DNA from: Promethearchaeota archaeon
GTDB lineage: Archaea; Asgardarchaeota; Hermodarchaeia; Hermodarchaeales; Hermodarchaeaceae
NCBI GenBank assembly: GCA_048939245.1
Contig: JBHLPR010000013.1
Location: 1-45,153, forward strand
Reading direction: 5' to 3'
DNA length: 45,153 bases
The notes under the pieces are model-generated. The model was not told the DNA's origin, made no database searches, and saw only the letters and a list, made by a program, of their open reading frames with translations. Numbering within the stretch: the stretch's first letter is position 1; each line of letters begins with the position of its first letter. The translations under genes were made by a program, and so were the position numbers. This document shows, in pieces, positions 739-23,715 of this stretch.

Positions 739-1106
739 TTATTGATCACCAAATCTTTTGCTTCTGTTGAGAATTCTTAATTGGGAGAATTCAGATAGTA
801 TTGCTTCGAAGGAGAGGTCTCGAGATTAAAGACTTTCGAATCGATAAACGTTTAATATCTTAACAAAGTTGGTTAGATGCCATCTGGGTTTTGTGCAATT
901 CTGTGTGCCACACCTTCTATGCGTACTCGTTCTTTAAGGATAATATATTACTGAAAATGATTTTCCAAATCCAAGTGTTCGAAGAATTTACCTGTTAAAT
1001 TATACACCACCTGTATTCATTATGTATATTCTAGAGAGATGTAGCATATTTCGGATTTCATAAAAATTACCAAAAAAAAGTAATGGTTTTATATCATATC
1101 CATAAC

Positions 1107-1149
1107 AATGGGGGGCACGTTTGGTATTCATAAACCAAACACACCCATT
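1107..1149 (+). promoter_or_regulatory. Inverted repeat/hairpin in leader of the APC permease gene
   Basis: GTTTGGT(1119-1125)-N8-ACCAAAC(1134-1140), enclosed by AATGGG/CCCATT, just downstream of an A-tract plus TTTTATAT TATA-like element (~1072-1094). Confidence 0.35.
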
Positions 1150-1176
1150 AAAGGTCATTCTTGAGATGAATGAAAA

Positions 1177-2781
1177 ATGGGAGAAGAAATATTTGTACGA
1201 AAAGCTTCCGGTCTTGTTCGAAATGTCAGTGCTTGGGACGCTCTAGTTATGTGCATTCTGATTCCAGGCATCTTTTGGCCCTGGGTCTATCAGATGTGGG
1301 CAGTTGGTCTCCACGGTCCTGGTGTATGGACGCCACTTGCGGCGCTAATCGCAATCGCTTTCATGATTCCGAACGCCATCATGTACGTGATGTTTAGCGT
1401 TGCGATGCCCCGTTCGGGCGGCGATTATGTTTGGGTTAGCCGAATCATCCATCCAGCCGTTGGATTTGCAGTGAACTGGTACATCACCCTAATTCTGCTT
1501 TCATGGGCAGGACCTTTCGCATCCTGGATTGTCGAATGGGGTATATCGCCCATCTGGCTTACATGGGGAACCATGACAGGTGATCCAACAGGATTGATAA
1601 TTTTCAATATGTTGAACATCAACGAGGTAAAACTAGCGATAGGCACAGTGATAATCGTAGCAATGGCCATCCTTTCTTTACTTGGCTCCAAGTGGGAATT
1701 CCGGGCAGAGTGGCTGGCAATTATTATGGGTTACATTGGCCTCATGGTTTGGGCTGGTGTAATGATTGCTGGTGCCCCCTTGATTGATGCCCGTATGCAA
1801 TTGCTTACAGGAGGAGCCCTCTCGTTCGCGACCATAGTTTCGACAGCCTCAGGTGCAGGCTGGGTTGTCACGGCAGCGTTACCGATTGGGCTTGGAGTGA
1901 CGTTCTTTGCGACCACGTATACAACATTGAACTTCCTTGGATATACTAACTCAGCATACATTGCTGGAGAAATCAAAGGGGTAACACGGTCGCATATCAT
2001 CGCCATTATTGGCGCACTCTTCATTTTCGGTTTCACTGCCTTTGGTTTATATGCAGTCAACGATTATGCTCTTGGACCGGTTGTACTCAACAGTCTTGCC
2101 TATCTTGATGTAGCGGGAGATCCTCTCTGGTGGAACTATTTCCCAATTGAACCGTTAGGTAGCATTCTTTCAATGTTTGCCACAGATATACCATTTATCC
2201 CACCGTTTCTAACAGTCACCTTTGCATTTGGTTGCTTTGGTGCTGCACTTGGTCTCTTCATTTCCAGTGTTCGAAACATCTTTGCTTGGTCCTTTGACCG
2301 AGTTCTTCCCAGCTCCCTGTCAAAGGTCGATAGCAGATTTCGAGCACCCTGGGTTGCCATCATAGTGACCTTCATTATCTGTTTTATAATGAACTTCCTT
2401 TACATCTATACAACTGCCCTCGATTACTTCACCTACAGCATTCTAGCCTGGTGGATTGCGATGGTTATTGTTGGCATCGCTGGCATTATCTTCCCATGGC
2501 GAAGAAAAGACATCTTTGAACTTGCACCAGACTTTGCTAAGATGAAGATATTCGGTATTCCACTAATCTCAATATTTTCAGCGATCTCTATTCCAATATC
2601 TGTATTCATTGGATATGCATCAGTGTCCCCCGCGGTATATGGAACGATTGACTGGTCGTTTATGATCGCAGTAGTCGTGACATTCATTATCGCACCTATC
2701 ATCTACTACATCAGTTACTTCTATCACAAGTCCAAAGGCATCTCGATTGCTAAGGCACAAGCGGAGATTCCACCTGAATAA
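1177..2781 (+). CDS. APC family amino acid/amine permease
   Basis: About 12 TM helices, N-terminal FVRKASGLVR, AMPRSGGDYVWVSR, AYIAGEIK, RNIFAWSFDRVLP. Confidence 0.9.
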   Translation: MGEEIFVRKASGLVRNVSAWDALVMCILIPGIFWPWVYQMWAVGLHGPGVWTPLAALIAIAFMIPNAIMYVMFSVAMPRSGGDYVWVSRIIHPAVGFAVNWYITLILLSWAGPFASWIVEWGISPIWLTWGTMTGDPTGLIIFNMLNINEVKLAIGTVIIVAMAILSLLGSKWEFRAEWLAIIMGYIGLMVWAGVMIAGAPLIDARMQLLTGGALSFATIVSTASGAGWVVTAALPIGLGVTFFATTYTTLNFLGYTNSAYIAGEIKGVTRSHIIAIIGALFIFGFTAFGLYAVNDYALGPVVLNSLAYLDVAGDPLWWNYFPIEPLGSILSMFATDIPFIPPFLTVTFAFGCFGAALGLFISSVRNIFAWSFDRVLPSSLSKVDSRFRAPWVAIIVTFIICFIMNFLYIYTTALDYFTYSILAWWIAMVIVGIAGIIFPWRRKDIFELAPDFAKMKIFGIPLISIFSAISIPISVFIGYASVSPAVYGTIDWSFMIAVVVTFIIAPIIYYISYFYHKSKGISIAKAQAEIPPE

Positions 2782-2800
2782 ACGGCTGGAATCCCCCTCC

Positions 2801-2816
2801 TTTCTTTTTTTTATTT
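2801..2816 (+). terminator. Archaeal oligo-T terminator candidate
   Basis: TTTCTTTTTTTTATTT 20 nt after the permease stop. Confidence 0.5.
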
Positions 2817-2935
2817 ACCCTTTGTATCAAGCCAAACTTGATACAACAACATTGAATACCACCAACTTTAGAAGATTGACTAATCACAAATGAAAAAAAG
2901 AGACTACCCATTAGTGGAGAAGTAGGTGTCAAAGA

Positions 2936-4021
2936 GTGTTTGACTTAACCAGTCTTGTTCGTGAATGTGTAAAGAACTCAAAAGGCTACAATGTTAGCCA
3001 TTTCATCCGGGCGTGGTCGAATAGAGACTTATTACGAATGATGTCAAATGAAAATCCCATTCCTCCTTCAAAGGCTGTGATTGATGCTATGATAAGCGAA
3101 TTAAAAACGGCCAATTTGTATCCTGCACCACCATCAGGACTTTGTGACCGATTCGCCAGACATGTAAAAATGGACCCAGAAAACATAGCTGTGTGTGCGG
3201 GTTCGATGGAGGTAATCGATGTTCTAATCCGAACATTTGTTGAACCTGGTCAAGAAGTCATAATTCATACTCCCACATTCTCAGCTTACGAAAAATTTGC
3301 CAACCTCCATGGAACAAAACTAACTTCAATAAAAATGAGCCCTCCTGAATTCCTATATCCCTTTGAAGAGATGGAAAAACACATTGCTGATAATACGAAA
3401 ATCGTTTTTGTCTGTACACCAAATAATCCAACAGGAAATTATTGTACCAAAGAAGATATCCGAAGATTAGCAAGAAACAATGTAATTGTTGCTGTAGACG
3501 AAGCCTACGCCGAGTATATTGACCAAAATATGACAGATCTCATCTCCTCTCACCCCAATGTGGTCTTCATTCGAACACTTTCAAAGGCTTGGGGCCTTGC
3601 AGGGTTACGTATTGGCTATTTGATTGCCGATGAAAGAATTATTGAGTATTTCAGTCGGGTCGCTCAACCTTTCCACATCTCAATGCCTATTCAACGAGGA
3701 GTGGAAGCGGCCTTTGATGACCCAAATTACTTGCGAGAACGTGTTGAAGCCAATAGAGCAGGTGTTGATTTTATCCGGAAAGAGCTAGAAGCAATTCCAG
3801 GAGTTGAAACATTTCCCTCAAGTGGTAATTTCGTGTTAATCAATGCTGGCGGTACTGGCCGAGATACTAAAGAAATCATCGAAACCCTCTTAGACGTGGG
3901 AATCTTTGCAAGAGATATGTCTAGCCATCGTTTGGGTGGCGCATATTTCCGAATTACGGTGAGTACACCAGAAAACAATCAACGATTTGTTGAAGCACTT
4001 AAACGCATTCTCAAAGCATAA
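2936..4021 (+). CDS. PLP-dependent aminotransferase class I/II (HisC/CobD-like)
   Basis: SNENP, PNNPTG, VDEAY, RTLSKAWGLAGLRIGY (PLP Lys). GTG start with AGGTG SD. Confidence 0.88.
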   Translation: MFDLTSLVRECVKNSKGYNVSHFIRAWSNRDLLRMMSNENPIPPSKAVIDAMISELKTANLYPAPPSGLCDRFARHVKMDPENIAVCAGSMEVIDVLIRTFVEPGQEVIIHTPTFSAYEKFANLHGTKLTSIKMSPPEFLYPFEEMEKHIADNTKIVFVCTPNNPTGNYCTKEDIRRLARNNVIVAVDEAYAEYIDQNMTDLISSHPNVVFIRTLSKAWGLAGLRIGYLIADERIIEYFSRVAQPFHISMPIQRGVEAAFDDPNYLRERVEANRAGVDFIRKELEAIPGVETFPSSGNFVLINAGGTGRDTKEIIETLLDVGIFARDMSSHRLGGAYFRITVSTPENNQRFVEALKRILKA

Positions 4022-11862: not shown

Positions 11863-14115
11863 CTATGTATAAGGACCGGGGGTGGTATCAATGGCATCCC
11901 GTTGTGTTGACATGGTGTCAATGTATTCCTTGTAAGCCTTCAGCATTTCTGGGGTGACACTGGGTTTGATTTTCTTTAGAGCAGCTTCGAAATGTTTAGC
12001 GTTGACCGTGGTGAGTTTGTCTTCATGACGTATGGCATACATACCGGCTTCGCGGACAAGATTGGCGAGGTCAGCGCCTGAGTAGCCTTCCGTTGTTTTG
12101 GCAATCTGTTCGAAATCTACATCATCAGCAAGAGGCATGTTTCGTGTGTGAACTTTGAGGATTTCGATCCGGGCATCCTTGTCAGGTGGTGGAACCATAA
12201 TGATTCGGTCAAAGCGTCCTGGTCGAAGGAGTGCTTTGTCGATGATTTCGGGGCGATTAGTAGCTCCGATGACAACGACACCTTTGAGTTCCTCCATTCC
12301 ATCCATTTCAGCGAGGATTTGATTGAGAACAGATTCGTAGACATGGCTGCCTTGCCATTGACCTCTCGCGGGGGCAAGACTATCTAGTTCGTCAAAGAAG
12401 ATAATACTGGGGGCGACTTGACGGGCTTTCCGGAAGATTTTCCGTATACCTTTCTCAGATTCACCTACCCACTTACTGAAAATCTCGGGTCCACGAATGG
12501 CAATGAAGTTAGCTTCACTCTCAGTAGCGACTGCTTTCGCAAGGAGTGTTTTTCCTCCGCCTGGGGGTCCGACAAGGAGAATGCCTTTGGGAGGTTGGAC
12601 GCCAACTTTTTCGAACTTGCCAGGGTATTTGAGCGGCCATTCAACTGCCTCGCGTAATTCGGCTTCTACCTCCTCCAAGCCTCCCACATCGTCCCATGAG
12701 ACTTTGGGGATTTCGAGATAGATTTCGCGTAGAGCGGAGGGTTCTGCTCGACGACGAGATTCTTCAAAGTCTGCTCCTGTGACCTCGAGACTTTCAATAA
12801 TTTCTGCAGGAAGAGGTTGATCTTCTTCCAAATTAATCTTGGGGAGTATGCGACGTAAGGTATTCATCGCGGCTTCCCGTGCAATCGCTGCAAGGTCAGC
12901 ACCAACCATTCCATGGGTTGCATCCGCGAGAGCATCAAGATCCACATCTTTGGACAGAGGCATTCCGCGCGTATGAATTAACAGGACTTCCTTACGTCCA
13001 TTTCGTGTGGGAACTGGAATCTCAATTTCTCGATCAAACCGTCCAGGACGTCGAAGGGCGGGGTCTAGAGCATCTTGCCGATTAGTTGCTGCGATAACAA
13101 TGACTCGACCACGTGCTTGTAGACCATCCATGAGTGCGAGGAGTTGGGCAACAACACGACGTTCCACTTCTCCTTGTACTTCTTCGCGTTTAGGTGCAAT
13201 ACTGTCAATTTCATCGATGAAGATGATGCTTGGAGCCCGTTCAGAGGCTTTTTCAAATAACTCGCGAAGACGCTTTTCCGATTCTCCATAGAATTTACTC
13301 ATAATCTCGGGTCCATTGATGGAAATAAAGGTGGCATCGGATTCATTAGCTACAGCGCGGGCAAGCAGAGTTTTTCCTGTGCCTGGTGGACCAAAGAGGA
13401 GAACCCCTTTGGGTGGATCAATTCCGAGCCTGTCAAAGAGTACGGGGTGTTTCAAAGGGAGTTCGATCATCTCTCGGACACGATCAATAGCCTCATCGAG
13501 CCCACCAATGTCTTCGTAGGTGACGAGTGGAGCTTTTGCTGTAACGTCCACCGCTTCGGGTTGGATCTGGATAACGGTGTCTTCCGTGATCTTTACAACA
13601 CCTTTGGGTGTGGTGCTTGTGACAACAAACTTGATTTCGCCAAGTGCAAAGGGAGCACCTGCGCCTCTCATCATAGCTTCAAATACAGAATAATCACCAC
13701 TTCGAATAGCTCCGGATCCTGCTGTACTGATGATATCACCAGGAGCTACGGGTCGTTGATTTAGACTGGGTTTTACTGCTTCGCCTTCGGCGACTATTCG
13801 AACACCTCGTTGAGCTGGGGCGAGTTCCACTCTTTTGGCTGGGGGTGGGTCGATGCGGTTGACTTCTACAAATTCTCCGATACCTGTACCGCTATTGTTT
13901 CGGACAAGTCCATCCATGAAGATTTTTCCTGAACCTGCATGAATGGATTGGCCACGCCAGACACGTGCACCAGTGGCCTTTTTTCCTTTAATCTCAATGA
14001 TATCGCCAGAGGTTACTCCAAGGCGTTCCATAACCTTGGGGTCTACACGGACAATCCCGCGACCGGCTTCATCGCTAGGCAGTGAGACAACACGCAGTTG
14101 AATTTTATTTGACAT
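11863..14115 (-). CDS. cdc48: Cdc48/VCP (VAT) AAA+ ATPase
   Basis: N-domain, two AAA modules ([14 protein letters not shown] and [20 protein letters not shown]), penultimate Tyr tail (GPYT) of HbYX type. Confidence 0.97.
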
Positions 14116-14538
14116 TTAATCAGTTTCCTCCATTAGGTGAGATAAGCGTTTACGGACTATTTGGAACTCCGAGGCCATCAACTGGAAGAGTGCTTCATAT
14201 GTATCAAAGTAATGGTCGATCATGGCTTGGAGCAATTGATCGCCATCCTTTGTTAGGCGATAGTATCGACGCATGGGTCCACGACCCTCACTGCGGACTT
14301 TGATATCGCCTACAATCCAGCCCTTTTCGGCGAGCCGATTGAGGAGGGGATAGATGGTTCCAGGTTCCAGTTGAATGCGCCCTGCCGACATCTCATCGAT
14401 TAGTGCGCTTATCCGCGCTCCATAAAGGCTTTCTTGTCGTAATAGGGTGAGTACCCAGAACTCAAGAATGCCACGGTTGATTTCACGAGTCCACTCTCGG
14501 AGTTTATCGTGGGTTTTGTCGGTGGAGCCATCAGTCAT
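14116..14538 (-). CDS. PadR family transcriptional regulator
   Basis: RGILEFWVLTLL...YG..I...PGTIYPLLNRL...G..RRYYRLT..G. Likely start ATG 14538. Stop abuts the cdc48 ATG. Confidence 0.88.
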   Translation of the reverse strand: MTDGSTDKTHDKLREWTREINRGILEFWVLTLLRQESLYGARISALIDEMSAGRIQLEPGTIYPLLNRLAEKGWIVGDIKVRSEGRGPMRRYYRLTKDGDQLLQAMIDHYFDTYEALFQLMASEFQIVRKRLSHLMEETD

Positions 14539-14553
14539 TTTGAGTTTCTCCAA

Positions 14554-14577
14554 ATATATAGTATAACTATATATAGT
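14554..14577. promoter_or_regulatory. Palindromic operator candidate for padR-cdc48
   Basis: Perfect ATATATAGT-ATA-ACTATATAT (14554-14574) overlapping a 12-bp palindrome ACTATATATAGT (14566-14577), 16 nt upstream of the padR start. Confidence 0.55.
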
Positions 14578-14761
14578 ATGACAAAGCAGTATTACTACCA
14601 TATATAAACTTATCGAATTTAGAATCCACAAAATTACAGACGGAACCAATTAGTGAAGTAAATATAGACTAAGCCATTCCCTCCGAGGCAGAAAGACTTT
14701 AAAAGACGCATTAGACATTGGCTCAGAACCCAAAGACCAGCAACTTCAAGGTGACTCATTA

Positions 14762-15610
14762 GTGAAACTGTCACTTCGCGTTTGCACTCTATTGATCGCA
14801 GTATTGTTCATTACTTCATTCGTTGGATTGCAGAACTATACCCCTATTGCAGCAGAAACAGACGTTCAGATCACCGACGTCCAAGTACCGAACGAAGTTG
14901 CCCAAGGCTCGACTGGGCAAGTTCAAGCAACCGTGCAGAATTTACTCAACGTTTCATTGGAGGGGTTTGCTCATTTTTTAGATATGTCTGGAGAGATTCA
15001 TAGTATCAACCCAGCTAATCCACTTACTCATATTGTGAATTTCACAATTGGACCCGAAGAATCACTTACGGTTATCGTTGATTATGTAGTAAATGAAACA
15101 GCAAGTGTGGGTGTTCACACGGTAACCTTTGAGATAAGCGTCGGCGGTTTTTCCTTCTTATTCGAGCAGTATTCGATTAATGTGGTTTCTGTAGTAAGAA
15201 TCGTCGATATCATGCCCGGAAGCGTGTTTTCTCAAGCTCAAGCGGGACTTTTGTTAGTTTCAATTGAAAATCGCGTGGACCTAACCAAGACAGTGCGTAT
15301 TGAGGTCTTTGGACCTAAATTTGTCAACATGTCCCAAGAGGTTGATATCGCACCAGGGATGAACACCGTGGCGATTCCGTTAATGCCGAATGTTACCCAC
15401 GTATATGATTTTGGCATATTTCCTGCAAACGTTTCAGTGTACTTCTTTGAGGAATTAGTTAGTAGTCATATTGTGAGTATTCCCGTCGATATGTCACTGG
15501 TCAACAAAACCGTTGCCATCATTCTTCCTGTAGGAATTTTTCTCATACTCGTTGTCTTCTACGCGTTTCGCAAGCGCCAGCGAGAACGCTCTGCAGCAGT
15601 TAGTGAATAG
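14762..15610 (+). CDS. Membrane-anchored extracellular protein with Ig/CARDB-like beta domains
   Basis: Signal peptide, beta-rich body with NxS/T sequons, C-terminal TM followed by RKRQR. Confidence 0.7.
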   Translation: MKLSLRVCTLLIAVLFITSFVGLQNYTPIAAETDVQITDVQVPNEVAQGSTGQVQATVQNLLNVSLEGFAHFLDMSGEIHSINPANPLTHIVNFTIGPEESLTVIVDYVVNETASVGVHTVTFEISVGGFSFLFEQYSINVVSVVRIVDIMPGSVFSQAQAGLLLVSIENRVDLTKTVRIEVFGPKFVNMSQEVDIAPGMNTVAIPLMPNVTHVYDFGIFPANVSVYFFEELVSSHIVSIPVDMSLVNKTVAIILPVGIFLILVVFYAFRKRQRERSAAVSE

Positions 15611-15664
15611 CGTTATTAGGAGGAGGCATAGTCTTACCATGTTACTGTTGGTTTGTGGTAAGCT

Positions 15665-16279
15665 ATGGCATCAAATCCATGGGTTCGTCTACGGCAAGAA
15701 ATACTAGCCTGCCATAAATGTGACCTTTCGAAATCACGGACACAGGCAGTGCCCGGTGTTGGACCCCAAAACGCCGAACTAGTCATTATCGGAGAAGCAC
15801 CAGGTCGATATGAAGATCTTCAAGGCGAGCCATTTGTTGGTGCAGCAGGAAAATTACTAACTAGACTGCTTGAAGGTATAGGGATCAAGCGAAAAACAGT
15901 GTTCATCACAAATGTGGTGAAGTGTCGTCCTCCAGAAAACCGACAGCCCCTGGCTGTAGAAAAAGAAACCTGTTACCCGTATCTTGTCCGCCAACTGAAC
16001 CTGATTTGCCCCAAAGTAATTGCCTTAGTAGGTAGAGTACCTACGGAAACAATGCTAAATAAATCGGTTCGAATGGGGGCAGCCCATGGTCAAAGCTTCG
16101 AACACGAGGGTCGAACATATTTTGTAATGTATCATCCTGCGGCAGGTTTGTATAACCAAGAACTGGTTCCAGAAATGGAGACAGACATGCGAAAAATGAA
16201 GCAGCTATTGGACAAAGAACCACAGCCAGAACCAAAAAAGGGTCAACAACCTCTAAGCAATTTCTTCGAAAACCCATGA
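15665..16279 (+). CDS. udg: Uracil-DNA glycosylase family 4 with C-terminal PIP box
   Basis: CHKC, GEAPG, PFVGAAG, NVVKCRPPENR, YHPAA, C-terminal QQPLSNFF. Confidence 0.93.
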   Translation: MASNPWVRLRQEILACHKCDLSKSRTQAVPGVGPQNAELVIIGEAPGRYEDLQGEPFVGAAGKLLTRLLEGIGIKRKTVFITNVVKCRPPENRQPLAVEKETCYPYLVRQLNLICPKVIALVGRVPTETMLNKSVRMGAAHGQSFEHEGRTYFVMYHPAAGLYNQELVPEMETDMRKMKQLLDKEPQPEPKKGQQPLSNFFENP

Positions 16280-16292
16280 ATTGGTGTCGGTT

Positions 16293-16757
16293 TCATTCTT
16301 CATTTTCCATCATTGATTCGAGTGCAGCCCGGCGTCGCGCTAGGAATGATTGAAGTTCACCTTGCATTTGAGCACGGATACCGAGTCCACCTGAAGCAGC
16401 TGCACCCATTGGGGATGTTGGGGCTTGTGGAGGGGGCGCTGCAATACCTGGAGGAGAACTGGGACCAGCGGGTGATTGGGGCATGCCGGGACTGCGCGGA
16501 GCTTCCATTGGTGAAGGGGGAGGAGTTGCAGCTGAAGGAGTGGTTGGAGCAGTTTTGGGTCCACCCATGCGAAGCACTGTGTCAACTTGGGTTTCAATTA
16601 TAGCGAGGCGATTCCTTAATTCGTCCATCTGTTTTTCGAGCGAGCCGACACCATTAAGGAAAATTGTGGCTACTCGTTCAAGGACGTTAGCTAGTTCCTC
16701 GATTTTTTTGGTGGTGTCTTTTTCTGCTGCTAAAAAGTCGAATCCGCCGAGAGCCAT
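16293..16757 (-). CDS. Hypothetical protein: coiled coil, proline-rich linker, amphipathic basic helix, acidic tail
   Basis: Heptad region IEELANVLE...LEKQMDELRNRLAIIETQV, then TPPPSP/PPG/APPPQAP, then MQGELQSFLARRRAA and ENEE. Own upstream TATA-like element. Confidence 0.8.
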   Translation of the reverse strand: MALGGFDFLAAEKDTTKKIEELANVLERVATIFLNGVGSLEKQMDELRNRLAIIETQVDTVLRMGGPKTAPTTPSAATPPPSPMEAPRSPGMPQSPAGPSSPPGIAAPPPQAPTSPMGAAASGGLGIRAQMQGELQSFLARRRAALESMMENEE

Positions 16758-16872
16758 TCTGCATCAGGTTCAAGTTGGATTGGATAGTTTAAAACCTTGT
16801 GGGGTAACTGATCAGCTCTTTATAGTTTTAGGGGAAACCTAAACAACTAACCTTAGAAAGACAAGATGACAA

Positions 16873-17553
16873 ATGGTGTCTCGATTCATGCTAGCCCGAA
16901 TGCATTATCAACGCTTTATTAGCTGGGTATTGGAACTTCGGCATCGTCGAATACAGCATGAGTGGACTGTGGAATGGAATGGGCTTCGTATTCAGATTTG
17001 CCCACAGGTTTTCAATCCATTTACGGGTCGTACAACTCAATTTTTTATTAGACATATGAATATCCGACCTGATAGCCATGTGCTAGAGATTGGGACAGGA
17101 TCTGGGGCGATTGCAGCGGCTGCCGCACAAAACGCTCAGTTTGTTACTGCGACGGATGTAAACCCATACGCTGTCCGGTGTGCACAGGCCACGATGCGAC
17201 AAAATGGGTTGATGAATCGCGTAACGGTTCGATTAGGGGATTTGTTTGTCCCCGTCCATGGAGAGCGCTTTGATATCATCTTGTTTAATCCTCCCTATTT
17301 TCGGTTTGACCCTCAGAGTTGGATGGCAAAAGCATGGTGTGCGGGGTCAAAGCACCAATTGATTGTCCGATTTCTTGAGGGAGCACGAAAGGTGTTGAAA
17401 CCGTCAGGAGAGATTCAGATATTGCTAAGTTCAGCGAGTGATTTGCCTCAGATAATTGGACTTATCAAAATGGCGGAGTTCAGAATCGAACTTATCAGCC
17501 AAGGTCAGATTTTGGGACCGTTGGAAAGAATCTATCTATTCCGGTTGATCTGA
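16873..17553 (+). CDS. HemK2/MTQ2-like SAM-dependent methyltransferase
   Basis: VLEIGTGSG, TDVNP, GDLF, FNPPY. Confidence 0.85.
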   Translation: MVSRFMLARMHYQRFISWVLELRHRRIQHEWTVEWNGLRIQICPQVFNPFTGRTTQFFIRHMNIRPDSHVLEIGTGSGAIAAAAAQNAQFVTATDVNPYAVRCAQATMRQNGLMNRVTVRLGDLFVPVHGERFDIILFNPPYFRFDPQSWMAKAWCAGSKHQLIVRFLEGARKVLKPSGEIQILLSSASDLPQIIGLIKMAEFRIELISQGQILGPLERIYLFRLI

Positions 17554-18576
17554 TTTTCGTCGCATCTTCGCCAATAAAGTGCTCCAGGGTATGAAGAAGA
17601 GACCAATTAGTACAATGCCGATTATAAGATATAGGGTGTCCATGATAGGATCGGAGCCTCCACCAAAGATTTGGAGCAGAATGGCTTGCAGGAATGGAAG
17701 TTGGGCGCCGATGGTGATTATCAAGGCTAATACGACTTTGCCAAAGAAACAGAAAAGGAGGGCTTTCCAAAGCGGATATTTGGTTGCTCCGAGGGCGATG
17801 AGGAGGATATCATCGGGGAGAGGAGTGGCTGCGTAGATGAAGATTAGAAGTCCGCCATAGCCGCGTTCGATTTGCCTGCGGATTTTGAGGATTCGTTGTC
17901 CTGTAGGTGATTCTTCTAAGGATTCGCTTTGAGTGCGTCCAAGGAGCCAGGCAACCGTTTCCCCAATGGCGGCACCGGCTCCTGCTACCACGCCAAGGAG
18001 AAGTGCATCAAGGTACGTGAATCCAGGCTGGAGGGCGATAAGGAGGAGGATGAATAGGTAGGGAATGGGAAAGATGACGGTGAAATTACCAAAGATGCTG
18101 ATAAGGAAGATCCCGATATAGATTCCCATGGGTCCGAAGACAGCTAAAGCCCATGCAATGATGCTGTTCATTATATCGAGGATGGATAAGCCGATAAGCA
18201 CGGGAACAATGAGTAAAACCGCAAAGAAGGTGACAAATACCAAGAAGCGGAGGGTGCGGTTGACATCACTTCTTTGGACTTGGGCTTGCCAGACTTGGCG
18301 GAAGGAGAGGTCCTTTCCCCGATAGACTTTGCCTAGCCCCCAAATGAAAAGGATAACCCCAGGGAGCAGATAACTCAATGCCGCGATTAGGGAGGCTGTT
18401 GTAATGTTGGAAGGAAGAAGGAATATACCCATGGAACTGAGAAAATACGGTATGAGTAGTAATACACCCAGAAGGAGGAAAGCTCCGCTGCCAAGTGTTA
18501 GGAAGAATTTAGCATCCCCTGCCCGTTCTTCAGTTGCATTGATTTCTGGGGATGAAGTGGGGGATGGTTCAGTCAC
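17536..18576 (-). CDS. VTT/DedA (SNARE-associated domain) membrane protein with extra N-terminal TMs
   Basis: GNFTVIFPIPY, GAGAAIGE..AWLLGR, AATPLPDD, GK. Confidence 0.8.
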   Translation of the reverse strand: MTEPSPTSSPEINATEERAGDAKFFLTLGSGAFLLLGVLLLIPYFLSSMGIFLLPSNITTASLIAALSYLLPGVILFIWGLGKVYRGKDLSFRQVWQAQVQRSDVNRTLRFLVFVTFFAVLLIVPVLIGLSILDIMNSIIAWALAVFGPMGIYIGIFLISIFGNFTVIFPIPYLFILLLIALQPGFTYLDALLLGVVAGAGAAIGETVAWLLGRTQSESLEESPTGQRILKIRRQIERGYGGLLIFIYAATPLPDDILLIALGATKYPLWKALLFCFFGKVVLALIITIGAQLPFLQAILLQIFGGGSDPIMDTLYLIIGIVLIGLFFIPWSTLLAKMRRKSDQPE

Positions 18577-18923
18577 ACAGGTCTACCTCAACCGTATATT
18601 TAGTTAACCTAGTTCTCACTGTAGAATGGATAGCCCTGAGTAATGTGTTAATAAAAATGGGGTGGGTCAAATGAAAAATGGCGGAGAGAATTAATTATCT
18701 CGTAATAAGAAACACAAACTCTCAACCCTCATGAACCCCTTGGAGAAGCCGCCTGTAAATATCCTACTACACTTTGAAATTTATGATTCCCTTTTCGTCA
18801 GAACCTACGACATTAAGGTGAACTTAGATATTCGCCATAACTTCGAAATATTAAAGACTTGTGTTCGCTAGTTAGCTAATTAACTTCGATAAACCTATCA
18901 AACATTCGAAGTAGGGCAGAATA

Positions 18924-19268
18924 ATGGCAGATGAGGACACCTCAAAGCTTCTTGTCTTAATAGGAGCAATCTTTCAACTAATTACTGCAATTCCTCTATT
19001 GTCTTTGGGCATATTCTTTGTCATTATTATGTTGCCGGCCTTCTTTTTGATCCCATTCTTTTTATTCATAATTTTCCCTGCAATTTTCCTCGTTTGGGGC
19101 ATCGGTTGTTTGATACTCTCTATCTATTGGTTCAAATGGCGTCATGAACCTAGTGCCCACAAATCATCACTTATCGCCACAGGCATTATTGGCTTAATAA
19201 TCGGCGGAACAATTGGTGGACTTTTAACGTTAATTGGTGGGGCCCTTGCACCTGAAGAAAATGCATAA
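18924..19268 (+). CDS. Small hypothetical membrane protein
   Basis: 3-4 TM helices, glycine-zipper C-terminus (GIIGLIIGGTIGGLLTLIGG). Confidence 0.7.
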   Translation: MADEDTSKLLVLIGAIFQLITAIPLLSLGIFFVIIMLPAFFLIPFFLFIIFPAIFLVWGIGCLILSIYWFKWRHEPSAHKSSLIATGIIGLIIGGTIGGLLTLIGGALAPEENA

Positions 19269-19377
19269 TCCTTGGAAGCACAGCATTTGGCAAAAGATAT
19301 CTAAAAAGCGCTTCATCCTAATTATGAAAAAACCTTAACCTCAAAGTTCGAGATTAGTGAGTGTTAAGTAAACATGA

Positions 19378-19608
19378 TTATCTCGTAATCAGTGTGGATG
19401 TTCGTTCTACATTTCGAAGACCACGCATGCGTTCGACGAGAACATAGAGGTCTTCCATGGATTTGGATTCCACCGAGACAATGATGTCCCAAGAGCCTAG
19501 GGTGGTTCGAGCTTCCTTGACTTCTTTGAATTCTTTTAAGCTCTCGATGATATCATATTCCCGTCCAGATTTTGCTAAGATGAGAACGTATGCAAGAACG
19601 ACGGCCAC
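19378..19608 (-). CDS. Stand-alone Lrp/AsnC ligand-binding (RAM) domain protein
   Basis: AYVLI...G.E...V.EA...GSWDIIV.VE...R...V.RTSTLI. Confidence 0.85.
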   Translation of the reverse strand: MAVVLAYVLILAKSGREYDIIESLKEFKEVKEARTTLGSWDIIVSVESKSMEDLYVLVERMRGLRNVERTSTLITR

Positions 19609-19645
19609 TCCGAGTCACCGATTGGGACGGACACCTTAAGAGGTT

Positions 19646-20944
19646 TTAAGTCTTTTTCTCTTTTGTGTGGGTGAGTTCGCGGAATGCGACTTTGTAAGTG
19701 GTCTTTGCTTCAGTATTAGCAGGAACATCTTCGGAGAGGATAGCACCCGGTAGCACGATGGAATTAGTCCCAATTTTGACTCCTGGGTGAACTGAAACAT
19801 TAGAACTGAGAATGGTATTATCTCCAATGACCGCACCATATTTGACTCGGGGCACAACCTCGGATTTCCCTTGAATCAGAGAGGATATTGATTCACCAGC
19901 CACGGGGATATTAACGAGTTGGGCACTGGCTCCAATGTCCACATTATGTCCAACGATGCTGTCACCCACAAAACATAGACGCCCGATTTTTGATTGACCA
20001 TAAATAAGGCTCTCTTTAATTTCCACGCCAAATCCAACGATTACATTGGAACCTAACGCGGTGTATTCCCGGACTAACGCGTTGTTTCCAATATAGGTGT
20101 TAGGCCCGATATAGGTGGGTCCTCGAATGGTTGTGTGCGGACGGATTAGGACACCTTCTGAGATGTGAACGGACCCTTCGATGCGACTGGGTTGTTGGAC
20201 TTCGGCTGATGCTGCAATGAAAGAGCCTTTACCGGTGAGCACCTTATCGAGGACAAACCGATTCGCTCGGATGAGATCCCAGGGGTATGAGATTTCAACC
20301 CAATCTCGTTCCCATACGGAACCAAAAACCTCTTTGCCATTTTTGATTAGTTGCTGAAAAGTTGCAGTCAAGTCCTTTGTTTGTTCTAGTAAATCAAAGA
20401 GATTTGATTGAACCACATAGATTCCAGCTACAGCATACCGGCTTTGAATTTCTGAAGGTTGGGGTTTTTCTACCAATTGCTTGATTCGAGCTCGCTCATC
20501 GATTACTGCAATACCATAAAATTGTGGAGTGTTAGTTAGAGTTAGGCTAACAACTGCTTCGGCACCAAGATCCTTGAAATGCCTCTGGGCGCGTCGAAAC
20601 ATTGTTGGTTCGCCGAGAATATCCGCATTAACAATAAAGAAGGCATCTTCACCTTCTAACTCATCTTTTGCCACAAGAATTGAATCGGCAACACTTCGAT
20701 GTTTTTCCTGCACAGCGTATTCGATTTTAACTCCGAAGCTATGACCGCGACCCAGAAAATCACGTATTTGATCTCCCCGATATCCGATAGATACTACGAT
20801 GTCACGAATCCCCGCCGCACGCATATCTTCGATGATCCATTGGATAACTGGTTTTCCACCGATGTTGAGCAATGGTTTGGGACATGTGTCAACGAGTGGC
20901 CACATGCGTTTACTTTCACTACCTGCCAAAAGGAGCGCACGCAT
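19646..20944 (-). CDS. Archaeal GlmU-like sugar-phosphate nucleotidyltransferase plus LbH domain (degenerate NTase motifs)
   Basis: PKPLL, YG...LVEKP, AGIY, PWDL, hexapeptide repeats, K.GAVIGD. Confidence 0.82.
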   Translation of the reverse strand: MRALLLAGSESKRMWPLVDTCPKPLLNIGGKPVIQWIIEDMRAAGIRDIVVSIGYRGDQIRDFLGRGHSFGVKIEYAVQEKHRSVADSILVAKDELEGEDAFFIVNADILGEPTMFRRAQRHFKDLGAEAVVSLTLTNTPQFYGIAVIDERARIKQLVEKPQPSEIQSRYAVAGIYVVQSNLFDLLEQTKDLTATFQQLIKNGKEVFGSVWERDWVEISYPWDLIRANRFVLDKVLTGKGSFIAASAEVQQPSRIEGSVHISEGVLIRPHTTIRGPTYIGPNTYIGNNALVREYTALGSNVIVGFGVEIKESLIYGQSKIGRLCFVGDSIVGHNVDIGASAQLVNIPVAGESISSLIQGKSEVVPRVKYGAVIGDNTILSSNVSVHPGVKIGTNSIVLPGAILSEDVPANTEAKTTYKVAFRELTHTKEKKT

Positions 20945-20989
20945 TGTTATTAACCCCTATTCCTAGGTGATTGCGGCTAAGCCAGTTCA

Positions 20990-22270
20990 TTAATCTTTTT
21001 CCTTTCGAACCCGTGGTAGAATCTCTACCCCAAACTTATTTTCAACTGTGTGACTTGTCCCTCCTGGACCCTGATATTCACAGGATATTACCCCTTCGTG
21101 AGTACCGGCTTTTGTCGCAATAAGAAAAAGGGGGAATTGAACATTTTGCTGTGCGGGGAGGCTAATAATCCGTTTTTCGAGAGTTCCGGTTTGTAGGAGG
21201 AGACTCGGCGGCAAGGCTATTTTGATATTGACATCCGCCGCATCGCCATGACTGTCGTTTTCAACACGAAGGATTAGTTCGAATTCTTCTTGGGAATGAG
21301 GAGAGGCGACCGGTTCAGTGATAATAGTAAGTCGGGGTTTAGCAGCGGTGATTTCTAATTGGAATGGATTGGATTTGAATTGAAATTGCTGTTTATCGAT
21401 TTGGAAGACAGCGATGAATGGTCCAACATCAAAAGTACCGGGAAGACGTGGTTCTAACGTGAAGAGAATTTTGAATTTTTTCTTCGATTCACGAGGAATA
21501 TTGAATTCTTGGAGGAGCGCGATATTCGATGGAAGGAAGATTTGGATATCAAGGAATCGGGCGGGAACGGAAAAAGTAACCGCGATATGCCCAATAATTT
21601 GTTCTTTGATTTTGACTTCTTCCTTGTCTAAGGTTAGCTTCAATGTTGCAGATTCTGTAATTTGATAGAGTGTAAGTAGAGTTGAAATCAGTTGGTTGAC
21701 TGTTTCAGATTCATCAAACTTTGTGGGAATTTGAAAATCTTTAGGAACTGAGTCTCCTTCGATGAAGCGGTGCACAAGAAGGGAGGCAACATCATATACA
21801 GCTGTCTTAATTTTTTTCACTCCGACGCGTTTTTCGAGTTTAAATGCCTCGCGATATGTCTGTTTTGATTTCGCCAGATCATTGGCAGCTAAGAGCAGAA
21901 TGGTTTGAAGGGAGTAGGTTCGAATTAATAGCCTGTCATTTTTATTCCTTGTCCCGATACGGGCTACCTGGTCTAAAGCTGACGAGGCAGCAGTAAAATC
22001 CTGGTTGGCAGTTGCGGAATCCACGGCATCAAATAGGATGGCAGTTTCACGTTTATCGTCTTGTACCGCTAGATAGAATTGAGCTGCTTGTAAAAAGGCT
22101 TCATAGGCTCGTCTATAATCTGGAATTTTGTTATAATTGTGTCCAGCTGCAGACCATTCATCGGCAGCTTTACTTTCGTCTCCCTCTGCTTGATATCTGT
22201 GTGCACGTTTCTCATGTTTAGCCGCTGATTTGACCGGATCTCCACCGAAGAGGCCTTTTAGAAAGGACAT
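20990..22270 (-). CDS. Alpha-SNAP-like TPR solenoid fused to two Ig-like domains
   Basis: MSFLKGLFGG...WSAAG...AFLQAAQFYL helical repeats, C-terminal beta sandwiches (LRVEN...A.DV.I...LP...F.L.A.KAGTH). Confidence 0.65.
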   Translation of the reverse strand: MSFLKGLFGGDPVKSAAKHEKRAHRYQAEGDESKAADEWSAAGHNYNKIPDYRRAYEAFLQAAQFYLAVQDDKRETAILFDAVDSATANQDFTAASSALDQVARIGTRNKNDRLLIRTYSLQTILLLAANDLAKSKQTYREAFKLEKRVGVKKIKTAVYDVASLLVHRFIEGDSVPKDFQIPTKFDESETVNQLISTLLTLYQITESATLKLTLDKEEVKIKEQIIGHIAVTFSVPARFLDIQIFLPSNIALLQEFNIPRESKKKFKILFTLEPRLPGTFDVGPFIAVFQIDKQQFQFKSNPFQLEITAAKPRLTIITEPVASPHSQEEFELILRVENDSHGDAADVNIKIALPPSLLLQTGTLEKRIISLPAQQNVQFPLFLIATKAGTHEGVISCEYQGPGGTSHTVENKFGVEILPRVRKEKD

Positions 22271-22344
22271 AATAAGGCACGGTTCCTGTGAACCTGCTAA
22301 AATCTATTTCGGGTATAGCAGGAATTCAGGTAAAAACTGTTTTA

Positions 22345-23715
22345 TTAGGAAAATTTCAACGGGACACCTTGCTTAGGTATCTGCACAGGTATTCGAGAAG
22401 CTTTGATGAACTTTTGGAAGAGATCGGGTGCTTCGGTATGAATAGGCACCACCCGCTTGGGCTGTATCTCCTCTAAGGTTTGACATAGCTGGAGGGGATG
22501 TATATGACCTGAACAGTGAGCCGAATACATGGCAAGTCCCGAGAGTGCCAACCAATTGAGAAGTTTTTCAAAACTGATTTCACTCTCTTCGTTAAAGGGC
22601 TCAGAAGCGCTGAGGAGATAAATACCGGATTCAGGGGGCTTGACTCGCTGGATGGCACTAATACTGGCAAAACTGCTGCAGAACACATAACGTTTAGGAT
22701 TTTTTTGAATATCTTTTGCTTTAACACTACGCTCAGCAAGCCCTTTTATCGGTGGATCGACTTCGTGGAGTAGTTTTTCGTGTTTTGATATTCGTTTTTT
22801 CTCTGCATCAAACCAGCGGATTGCATCATCTTTTGCGATGCTGGGGGTTTTGAGACCGTGACATTTATTGATGGCATGAAGAATCCACATCCTTCGTGGT
22901 TCAATGACTAGCTCCCTGTCGTTTTTCTGCGCAGCAGATTTCATAGTTCGAAACCGGTCAAAATCTGGTTCAGAAAAGTCTGCAATTGTTAAGCTTTTGC
23001 ACCCCTGAATTATTGTGGTGGATTTTTCGAGTACTTCTTGCTCTGAGGATAATTCGGCTTTGGCGATGTTAGTCCCTTCGCTAAGGACAACATCTGGCTT
23101 TCCAGCTTTTTGGATGGCTTCTACGAAGTCTTTAGTAAGTTGTGGGGCTGTTCCGTGGCGACGGAAATCTCCGGTATAGACGATGGTGGCTTCAGAACAG
23201 TGAATGATGAACCCATAAGCTGCAGGGATGCTATGGTCAACATGTATTGGTTTAACCTCTACGTTCCCGATTTTGATACGATCCCCCGTCCGGAAGGTCC
23301 TAATTGTTTGGTCTTCGATGTCCGTGTCAAAGGTTTTTCGTGAGCCCTGCAATCGAGCTTCAAAGATGATACGTGTGCATTCACCCATATGGAGTGGAAT
23401 GCTTCGATTTAGCAGGGGGAGATATCCACTATGATCCGTGTGAGCATGCGAGAGGAGTACTGCATCGATATCTGAGGGGGTTTGATCAGTTTCTCTATTT
23501 TGGTGATAGAGGTTGGGAATATCCGGGGTTGCACCCACTTTGATTAATTCTTCAAGAGAGTGGGGGGTGACTGGAAAATCATAGTACTCACGCATCGTTT
23601 CGAAAGATTTCCCGAAGTCAAGAAAGAACTTAACTTCATGACCTTGATCTTCAATGAGGATTTTATTCGCGCCGATTTCTCCTGCGCCACCATATATAGT
23701 TATGATTACAGACAC
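22345..23715 (-). CDS. MBL-fold/beta-CASP nuclease, RNase J-like
   Basis: GGAGEIGAN, LDFG, SHAHTDH, VDHSIP, YTGDFR, EGT, HCSGH, PIHTE. Confidence 0.88.
   Translation of the reverse strand: MSVIITIYGGAGEIGANKILIEDQGHEVKFFLDFGKSFETMREYYDFPVTPHSLEELIKVGATPDIPNLYHQNRETDQTPSDIDAVLLSHAHTDHSGYLPLLNRSIPLHMGECTRIIFEARLQGSRKTFDTDIEDQTIRTFRTGDRIKIGNVEVKPIHVDHSIPAAYGFIIHCSEATIVYTGDFRRHGTAPQLTKDFVEAIQKAGKPDVVLSEGTNIAKAELSSEQEVLEKSTTIIQGCKSLTIADFSEPDFDRFRTMKSAAQKNDRELVIEPRRMWILHAINKCHGLKTPSIAKDDAIRWFDAEKKRISKHEKLLHEVDPPIKGLAERSVKAKDIQKNPKRYVFCSSFASISAIQRVKPPESGIYLLSASEPFNEESEISFEKLLNWLALSGLAMYSAHCSGHIHPLQLCQTLEEIQPKRVVPIHTEAPDLFQKFIKASRIPVQIPKQGVPLKFS

Follow-up and report, generated by a model that had tools for sequence, protein, structure and literature searches.

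The question raised by this locus is what a small, unannotated protein of an Asgard archaeon is built to bind. The window, that is, the whole stretch of DNA that was analyzed (45,153 nucleotides of a Hermodarchaeia contig), carries an open reading frame whose product, here called P0001, had been read in a first-pass annotation as a minimal WAVE-, WASH- or VASP-like protein and as a possible archaeal precursor or analog of eukaryotic actin nucleation and elongation factors. The position of the frame, 16293–16757, and all the strings quoted from it were confirmed by the ORF table and the translation. It is a real gene and not a chance ORF, because a word-indexed search of 5.8 billion proteins returned 64 homologs at 48% to 93% identity, none of them annotated. 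The gene, an upstream promoter-like element, and the parts of the protein are as follows.

16293–16757, minus strand: whole P0001 gene, 154 codons plus stop, ATG start (ORF table, table 11)
16788–16794, minus strand: TATA-like TTTTAAA, 31–37 nt upstream of the P0001 ATG in the divergent intergenic region, seen in the sequence only
16725–16757, minus strand: N-terminal aromatic/hydrophobic motif, residues 1–11, with M1, G5, F6, D7, and F8 each at 90% or more
16566–16745, minus strand: long helix in two heptad segments, residues 5–64, from AlphaFold2 and the alignment
16644–16655, minus strand: N-G-x-G between the helix segments, residues 35–38, with N35, G36, and G38 invariant
16398–16565, minus strand: Pro/Ser/Ala-rich disordered linker, residues 65–120, of low pLDDT and variable across homologs
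16299–16385, minus strand: C-terminal amphipathic helix, residues 125–153, conserved, from AlphaFold2 and the alignment
16329–16373, minus strand: invariant core of the end helix, A129 to R143, from the alignment
16296–16319, minus strand: acidic end, residues 147–154, without a terminal Trp, from the alignment and tail composition

An AlphaFold2 model of P0001 based on a 24-sequence alignment contains a helix at residues 5–64 (pLDDT 83–96 over residues 11–60), an unstructured stretch at residues 65–120 (pLDDT 42–46), and a second helix at residues 125–153 (pLDDT about 90). In the alignment of the homologs, both helices are conserved and the linker varies in its length as well as its sequence. 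The invariant columns number 34, among them V29–G36 in the first helix and A129, M131, E134, L135, F138, L139, and R141–R143 in the second. The model and the alignment thus bear out the order of coiled coil, proline-rich linker, end helix, and acidic tail that had been described from the letters. At the N-terminus, G-F-D-F-[LI] is nearly invariant in members of the Hermod/Thor type, and the clades outside this type have an F-rich equivalent.

The N-terminal helix of the family is probably an oligomerizing coiled coil, perhaps a trimer, because it tolerates heptad-sized insertions and because its profile matches mostly trimeric coiled coils in the PDB. Its heptad register, as read from the hydrophobic positions, shifts at N-G-x-G. 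Loki-type members have a 7-residue, proline-containing insertion exactly at this point, and a Hermod subgroup (P0059–P0064) has a clean 7-residue insertion in the second helix segment. The PDB matches of the N-terminal-domain profile are composition biased and include reovirus sigma-1, trimeric autotransporter stalks, the phage tail needle, and designed trimers; no BRK1 or HSBP1 chain is among them.

The linker had been likened to profilin-binding polyproline. This description fits the Loki-type members best, which have two runs of five to seven prolines immediately before the end helix; P0001 itself has 19 prolines in the whole protein and linker runs no longer than PPP, two in number. In all clades, the end helix that follows has a hydrophobic residue at about every third or fourth position and an invariant E-L pair, then two hydrophobic residues three positions on, and then a basic cluster; in the clade of P0001, the core reads ELxxFLxRRR. 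Conservation of this helix had been proposed as a test, and it was borne out by the invariant residues listed above and by the E-L core, which is retained across all clades and in the fused proteins described below. An acidic tail closes most family members, with 8 to 11 Asp in some Loki-type members. The tails examined lack a Trp such as that in the C-A region of the WASP family, an absence that had been recorded correctly for P0001.

The named homologs among the 64 come from Promethearchaeota or Thorarchaeota MAGs, and the closest named relatives, at 82% to 88% identity, are from Candidatus Hermodarchaeota MAGs. An exhaustive phmmer search of 1.84 billion representatives, which used no word index, gave only 8 matches and added four distant relatives with an identical layout. 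A profile search found 85 family members, bringing in Odin-, Hod-, and Loki-type proteins. In whole-genome profile searches, family matches were present in 330 of 400 genomes of the Asgard phylum, coiled-coil and proline composition possibly contributing to the weakest of them (E 1e-4 to 1e-6), as well as in 80 of the 90 high-quality genomes and 75 of the 85 genera. All named matches in the protein-set and related-locus searches are Asgard archaea, which have actin, in agreement with the expectation that homologs would be found in actin-bearing archaea. Protein-atlas searches placed the family in unnamed clusters of its own or gave no match, and no description of it was found in the literature searched. 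The family is therefore undescribed, unannotated, and nearly universal in Asgard archaea, and among named matches it is restricted to them. It is single copy in the host genome, where the family profiles had one significant match among 4953 ORFs.

Membership of the P0001 family in the WH2, Ena/VASP, or WAVE/WASH families was not supported by sequence comparison. Whole family proteins gave no match to WH2 (PF02205) in Pfam at E values up to 1–10, seven isolated C-terminal segments gave no Pfam match at E values up to 10, and the L-[KR]-[KR]-[TV] of WH2 is lacking at the aligned positions of every clade. Unlike WH2, in which a short helix is followed by an extended motif, the predicted helix of P0001 continues through the basic cluster. 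EVH1/WH1 and VASP_tetra likewise had no Pfam match in the family. The Pfam matches that were obtained were all subthreshold matches of the coiled-coil or composition type (NPV_P10, FlaC, DUF7310, BLOC1_2, CCDC53, and HSBP1). Among them, CCDC53 (PF10152) was matched in 4 of 17 members, at best with an E value of 0.011 and 16.3 bits where the cut-off is 24.6, and HSBP1 was matched in 3 of 17; both stood amid many generic coiled-coil matches. PDB sequence and profile searches found no WH2, WASP, WAVE, VASP, arcadin, or other actin-binding peptide. The best PDB match of the C-terminal profile, the N-terminal helix of the twinfilin ADF-H domain, had an E value of 0.28 and was treated as chance. The initial placement of P0001 among WAVE/WASH/VASP-type proteins was thus not supported, no model of WH2, VASP, WAVE, BRK1, or CCDC53 scoring above threshold.

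A fainter likeness was found to the F-actin-binding motif of human VASP, residues 259–278 (PMC10340426), which the first-pass annotation had given correctly as printed there. Residues 131–145 of P0001 share 7 of 15 positions with human VASP 263–277 (PMC10340426). Against the family end-helix profile, in a comparison picked after the fact, the VASP 259–278 peptide scored 7.3 bits, which was equalled by 44 of 20,000 shuffles and by 16 of 40,000 random 20-mers from host ORFs. This places it in the top 0.04% (about 1 in 2,500) of random 20-mers, but several hundred windows of one 2.5-Mb genome would equal it, and the score is not significant proteome-wide. The G-actin-binding block (human VASP 223–239) scored 0.2 bits. 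The sequence likeness of the end helix to the VASP F-actin-binding motif is thus measurable and real, and it is weak. With this low score and no family match, the suggestion that P0001 is a precursor in the sense of homology was unsupported; that it is an analog in function is a hypothesis on which these comparisons weigh neither way.

Actin and profilin had both been expected in the host, and both were found. Besides a Lokiactin-type actin (1e-129) and other genes of the actin family, the genome encodes a profilin and two gelsolins of two domains each. The contig edge truncates the main actin gene (genome G000, contig C68, 3626–4714; loci L001 and L024) at its 5′ end; over 363 residues, its product is 100% identical to that of the intact gene in a congener. 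The profilin gene (L005, 1429–1851, minus strand) has a possible GTG start 17 codons upstream of an internal Met, which would give the protein an N-terminal extension like that of the polyproline-binding Thor profilin (PMC8410842). Weak binding to a VASP polyproline peptide is known for Thor and Heimdall profilins, and the Loki, Odin, and Heimdall LC2 profilins were reported not to bind it (PMC8410842). According to a recent Lokiactin study, crawling Asgard cells build dynamic actin-filled protrusions, profilins and gelsolins are the only actin regulators named, with no nucleator or elongation factor known, and an ARF GTPase co-precipitated with Lokiactin (PMC13716822). Its main text makes no mention of a P0001-family protein in the Lokiactin co-immunoprecipitation (PMC13716822).

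These features are consistent with the following mechanism. First, the N-terminal helix would oligomerize, probably as a trimer, and would thereby display several linkers and end helices together. Second, the end helix would act as a short motif that docks on a single partner shared by Asgard archaea. Third, this partner would most likely be actin, and the proline tracts would recruit profilin or profilin–actin where the profilin binds polyproline. By clustering actin or profilin–actin, the protein would favor nucleation, elongation, or bundling, in the way of Ena/VASP or of the proline-rich region and C-A tail of WASP-type proteins, without homology to either.

The different parts of this proposal carry different degrees of confidence. 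That the family consists of oligomeric adaptors with a docking motif is quite likely. The identification of actin or profilin as the partner of the end helix is tentative, and the complete reading, an oligomeric adaptor whose end helix docks on actin or profilin–actin, is offered as the best explanation with rather less than even confidence. Actin or profilin–actin is favored because a run of prolines with a short basic amphipathic helix behind it is the hallmark of eukaryotic actin-assembly factors and because the distribution of the family mirrors the Asgard actin toolkit. Against the actin reading, the family has no significant sequence similarity to any actin-binding family in Pfam or the PDB. 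The lack of a conserved neighborhood with cytoskeletal genes and of gelsolin fusions in five genomes, both described below, and the silence of the Lokiactin main text (PMC13716822) also count against it. Against a profilin link, the Loki-type members have the best proline runs, yet Loki profilins are reported not to bind VASP polyproline (PMC8410842), and P0001 has only its PPP runs.

The end helix is read as a short docking motif because the conserved peptide turns up again and again behind proline-rich stretches of proteins that are not related. A search of ten whole Asgard genomes showed that the coil, proline linker, and end helix together form the C-terminus of Arf/Rag-like GTPases of 400 to 450 residues. 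Such fusions occur in at least nine genes of four genomes, which represent three families: three genes in G129, one in G181, three in G169, and, in G124, one complete fusion gene with an adjoining paralog that runs off the locus end. The fused Arf/Rag-like GTPases include the following.

L059, 532–1869, plus strand: fused Arf/Rag-like GTPase
L062, 1492–2820, minus strand: fused Arf/Rag-like GTPase
L069, 643–1881, plus strand: fused Arf/Rag-like GTPase
L071, 1417–2655, minus strand: fused Arf/Rag-like GTPase
L073, 625–1827, plus strand: fused Arf/Rag-like GTPase
L102, L106, and L107: one fused Arf/Rag-like GTPase each

The complete module fused to these GTPases corresponds to profile positions of about 13–145; the N-terminal-domain and end-helix profiles, used separately, each match, and the GTPase stands in place of the N-terminal aromatic motif of the family. 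The central domain of the fusions matches Pfam Arf at 1e-18 to 1e-23 and Gtr1_RagA at 1e-15 to 1e-27, and G1, G3, and G4 motifs accompany the Arf/Gtr1_RagA matches in L059, L069, L071, L073, L102, and L106. A helix-hairpin-helix-like region can be seen by eye at the N-terminus of the fused GTPases, and their genes are often tandem paralogs (contig C10 of G169 and contig C63 of G124). A search of the 5.8-billion set for longer proteins gave no fused relatives; this was a false negative, as the whole-genome searches found them.

The module is also found in proteins of other types. A 356-residue protein with weak HEAT-repeat matches (L072) ends in it. In a 697-residue protein without a Pfam match (L103 of G142, 760–2850, plus strand), the proline-rich stretch and end motif are internal, at about residues 270–303, and the C-terminus is, by eye, a hydrophobic, transmembrane-like segment. 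A check of 18 gelsolin matches (13 distinct reading frames) from five genomes gave no gelsolin fusion of the module. In another protein (L070, contig C4 of G129, 1669–2211, plus strand), of 181 residues from the first ATG, PPPPP is followed by a family-type helix that leads into G-V-K-L-Q-P-V. This is the most WH2-like relative seen, with a weak family match (5e-6) and no WH2 match in Pfam.

An alternative explanation is that P0001 is an adaptor of a small-GTPase pathway. In this case, the module would work with Arf/Rag-like GTPases, its end helix would bind a regulator, an effector, or the GTPase itself, and the stand-alone protein would correspond to the fused GTPases in split form. The Rosetta-stone logic of a complete module fused so repeatedly in these genomes speaks for this alternative, as does the richness of Asgard genomes in Arf/Rag-like GTPases, and it is compatible with an actin link, given the ARF GTPase that co-precipitated with Lokiactin (PMC13716822). 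However, P0001 has no GTPase domain in Pfam, and the host, in which the best phmmer matches (E about 1e-5) are generic small GTPases and no close ortholog of the fused type was found, keeps the stand-alone protein with its invariant end helix. The end motif is also present in the non-GTPase proteins L072 and L103. An AlphaFold2 model of one fusion, based on a 4-sequence alignment, had a mean pLDDT of 60.6, with 30–60 in the module, which is too poor for any docking and gives no information on where the end helix binds. The small-GTPase explanation is thus considered unlikely. A bolder version of the actin reading, in which the family would be the missing Asgard actin-assembly factor and its end helix would also couple Arf/Rag-like GTPases to the Lokiactin cytoskeleton, is possible but doubtful.

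It is also rather improbable that P0001 is a membrane-tethered scaffold, in which the C-terminal helix, perhaps together with the N-terminal aromatic motif, would bind the membrane in the manner of the MinD and FtsA helices. The hydrophobic moment of the end helix, 0.35–0.54, is near that of the MinD membrane anchor (0.41), a basic cluster follows the hydrophobic face, and the helix comes after a flexible linker and, in the fusions, closes small GTPases, which is where anchors usually sit. Nevertheless, the best 18-residue window has a net charge of only 0 to +3, the tails that follow carry a charge of –1 to –8 in most family members, with up to 11 Asp, and the acidic E134 is among the invariant residues. 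Furthermore, the motif lies in the middle of L103, which already has a hydrophobic C-terminal segment. Actin is favored over the membrane because the end helix has too little positive charge, and its flank is too acidic, for a typical anchor.

The surroundings of the gene were also considered. The P0001 gene stands alone, convergent with a uracil-DNA glycosylase (UDG) gene (Pfam match 3.6e-33) across a gap of 13 nt and divergent from a small methyltransferase gene across an intergenic region of 115 nt. The TTTTAAA in this region can be read as an archaeal TATA box because it resembles the usual consensus, TTTAWA, and it is likely to be the gene's own promoter, with a very short leader. In the Hermod/Thor clade, the neighbors of the family gene are the methyltransferase, UDG, PadR, and CDC48 genes. 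Loki genomes have a gene for an Elf1-type zinc-ribbon protein upstream and, on the downstream side, genes for a membrane protein and a hexapeptide-repeat protein. In one Odin genome, the family gene lies about 5 kb from an ESCRT cluster with Snf7, Vps4, and ESCRT-II genes. Because neighborhoods differ between clades, the synteny of the family gives no functional clue. No conserved neighborhood with actin, profilin, or gelsolin genes was found across the clades examined, and the sole gelsolin adjacency seen, in G127, is loose, at about 930 nt.

Several further observations were made on these regions. The G127 locus (L092, contig C5) holds within 2.2 kb the family member (2694–3095, minus strand), a divergent gene of 133 codons (2206–2607, plus strand) that looks roadblock-like by eye and has no Pfam match, and the gelsolin-domain gene (907–1761, minus strand; PF00626 at 1.9e-4). 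Across the Hermod/Thor clade, gene order is kept over about 11863–23715 of the window and is also seen in L022 and L050. It begins with an RsmB-type methyltransferase with PUA, a metallo-beta-lactamase, a SNAP-like protein, an NTP-transferase/LbH_eIF2B protein, AsnC, and VTT/DedA. The small methyltransferase and the P0001-family gene come next, followed by either UDG or a small ORF, and then by a predicted membrane protein, PadR, CDC48, and TBP. The family gene of Odin and Loki genomes, too, has an NTP-transferase or hexapeptide gene no more than a few kilobases away. The SNAP-like protein of the window (20990–22270, minus strand; 426 residues) matches Pfam SNAP (soluble NSF attachment protein) over residues 11–142 (E 2.1e-7; 31.2 bits, cut-off 25), and a weak BatD/DUF11-like beta domain lies behind this match.

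These neighborhoods bear on the two weakest explanations. It is very unlikely that P0001 is an adaptor of AAA-ATPases whose end helix, MIM1-like or VIM-like, would bring the protein to Vps4 or CDC48. MIM1, with the pattern (D/E)-x-x-L-x-x-R-L-x-x-L-(K/R), is found at the C-terminus of ESCRT-III proteins. Residues L139–E147 of P0001 resemble the CHMP1-type MIM1 and the R..AA..R of VCP-interacting motifs, CDC48 is encoded four genes away in the whole Hermod/Thor clade, and the Odin gene lies close to the ESCRT cluster. However, the CDC48 and ESCRT linkages are clade specific, with unrelated genes in between, and the family-wide invariant core is located upstream, around the E-L pair. The key Leu positions of a MIM1 are occupied by the invariant Arg143 and, in Loki-type members, by Ser or Val, and the residues needed for a MIM1 or VIM are not conserved outside Hermod/Thor, Loki-type members having Ser, Val, or Asp instead. 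Finally, a PCNA client is the least probable of all: Q132-x-x-L-x-x-F-L of P0001 matches the PIP box Q-x-x-[LIM]-x-x-[FY]-[FYL] at the C-terminus, with basic residues after it and the fitting UDG gene adjoining, but other clades have Arg, Leu, Met, or Ser in place of the Gln, and the UDG neighbor is missing outside the clade and replaced by an unannotated gene of 155 codons in one close relative.

If the actin reading is correct, the combination of an oligomer, polyproline, and a short actin-binding helix that marks Ena/VASP, WASP/WAVE, and formin tails, possibly with GTPase control, would predate eukaryotes, either as an ancestor of the eukaryotic design or as an independent invention. The delivery of actin by polyproline and profilin, and perhaps its control by GTPases, would then be dated to before eukaryogenesis. 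Small, present in nearly all Asgard archaea and only there, and with the component parts of an actin polymerase, the protein would be a concrete candidate actin regulator. If the actin reading fails, the portable end motif would still mark an interaction hub in most Asgard archaea.

Compared to known actin-assembly proteins, P0001 exhibits several likenesses in layout. Ena/VASP proteins consist of EVH1, a proline-rich region, and EVH2 with GAB, FAB, and a tetramerizing coil, and they resemble P0001 in their coil, their proline tracts, and their short helix, which is basic and amphipathic. P0001, in contrast, has no EVH1 and no WH2-like GAB, its coil is N-terminal instead of C-terminal, and it has an additional acidic tail. 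With the WASP, WAVE, and WASH proteins, P0001 shares the order of proline-rich region, basic amphipathic helix, and acidic end, as well as a small N-terminal coil, WAVE and WASH being assembled through BRK1/CCDC53-type coils. It differs from them in having no WH2, no L-K-K-T/V, and no Trp in the acidic end; to our knowledge, an Arp2/3 complex has not been established in Asgard archaea.

Formins, with FH1 and a DAD/WH2-like tail, and the I-BAR proteins MIM/ABBA, with a proline-rich region and a terminal WH2, offer another parallel, at the level of consensus patterns. In the P0001 family, runs of five to seven prolines are likewise followed near the C-terminus by a short amphipathic helix and a basic cluster, and the same tail is attached to different N-terminal modules, although P0001 has neither FH2 nor I-BAR. 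Among GTPases, those of the ARL13B type have an Arf-like domain, a coiled coil, and a proline-rich tail, and in the fused proteins L059, L069, L071, L073, L102, L106, and L107, an Arf/Rag-like GTPase is similarly followed by a coil and a proline-rich region, the likeness beyond the GTPase domain being one of description. The conserved terminal helix of the fusions has no known counterpart in ARL13B.

Finally, Arcadin-2 of Pyrobaculum offers a comparison within the archaea. Izore et al. reportedly described in 2016 that its C-terminal helix binds a hydrophobic groove of crenactin. Arcadin-2 belongs to another phylum and sequesters instead of assembling, and we know of no proline tracts in it. 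Both are nevertheless small archaeal proteins, and P0001 would likewise act on an archaeal actin through its C-terminal helix.
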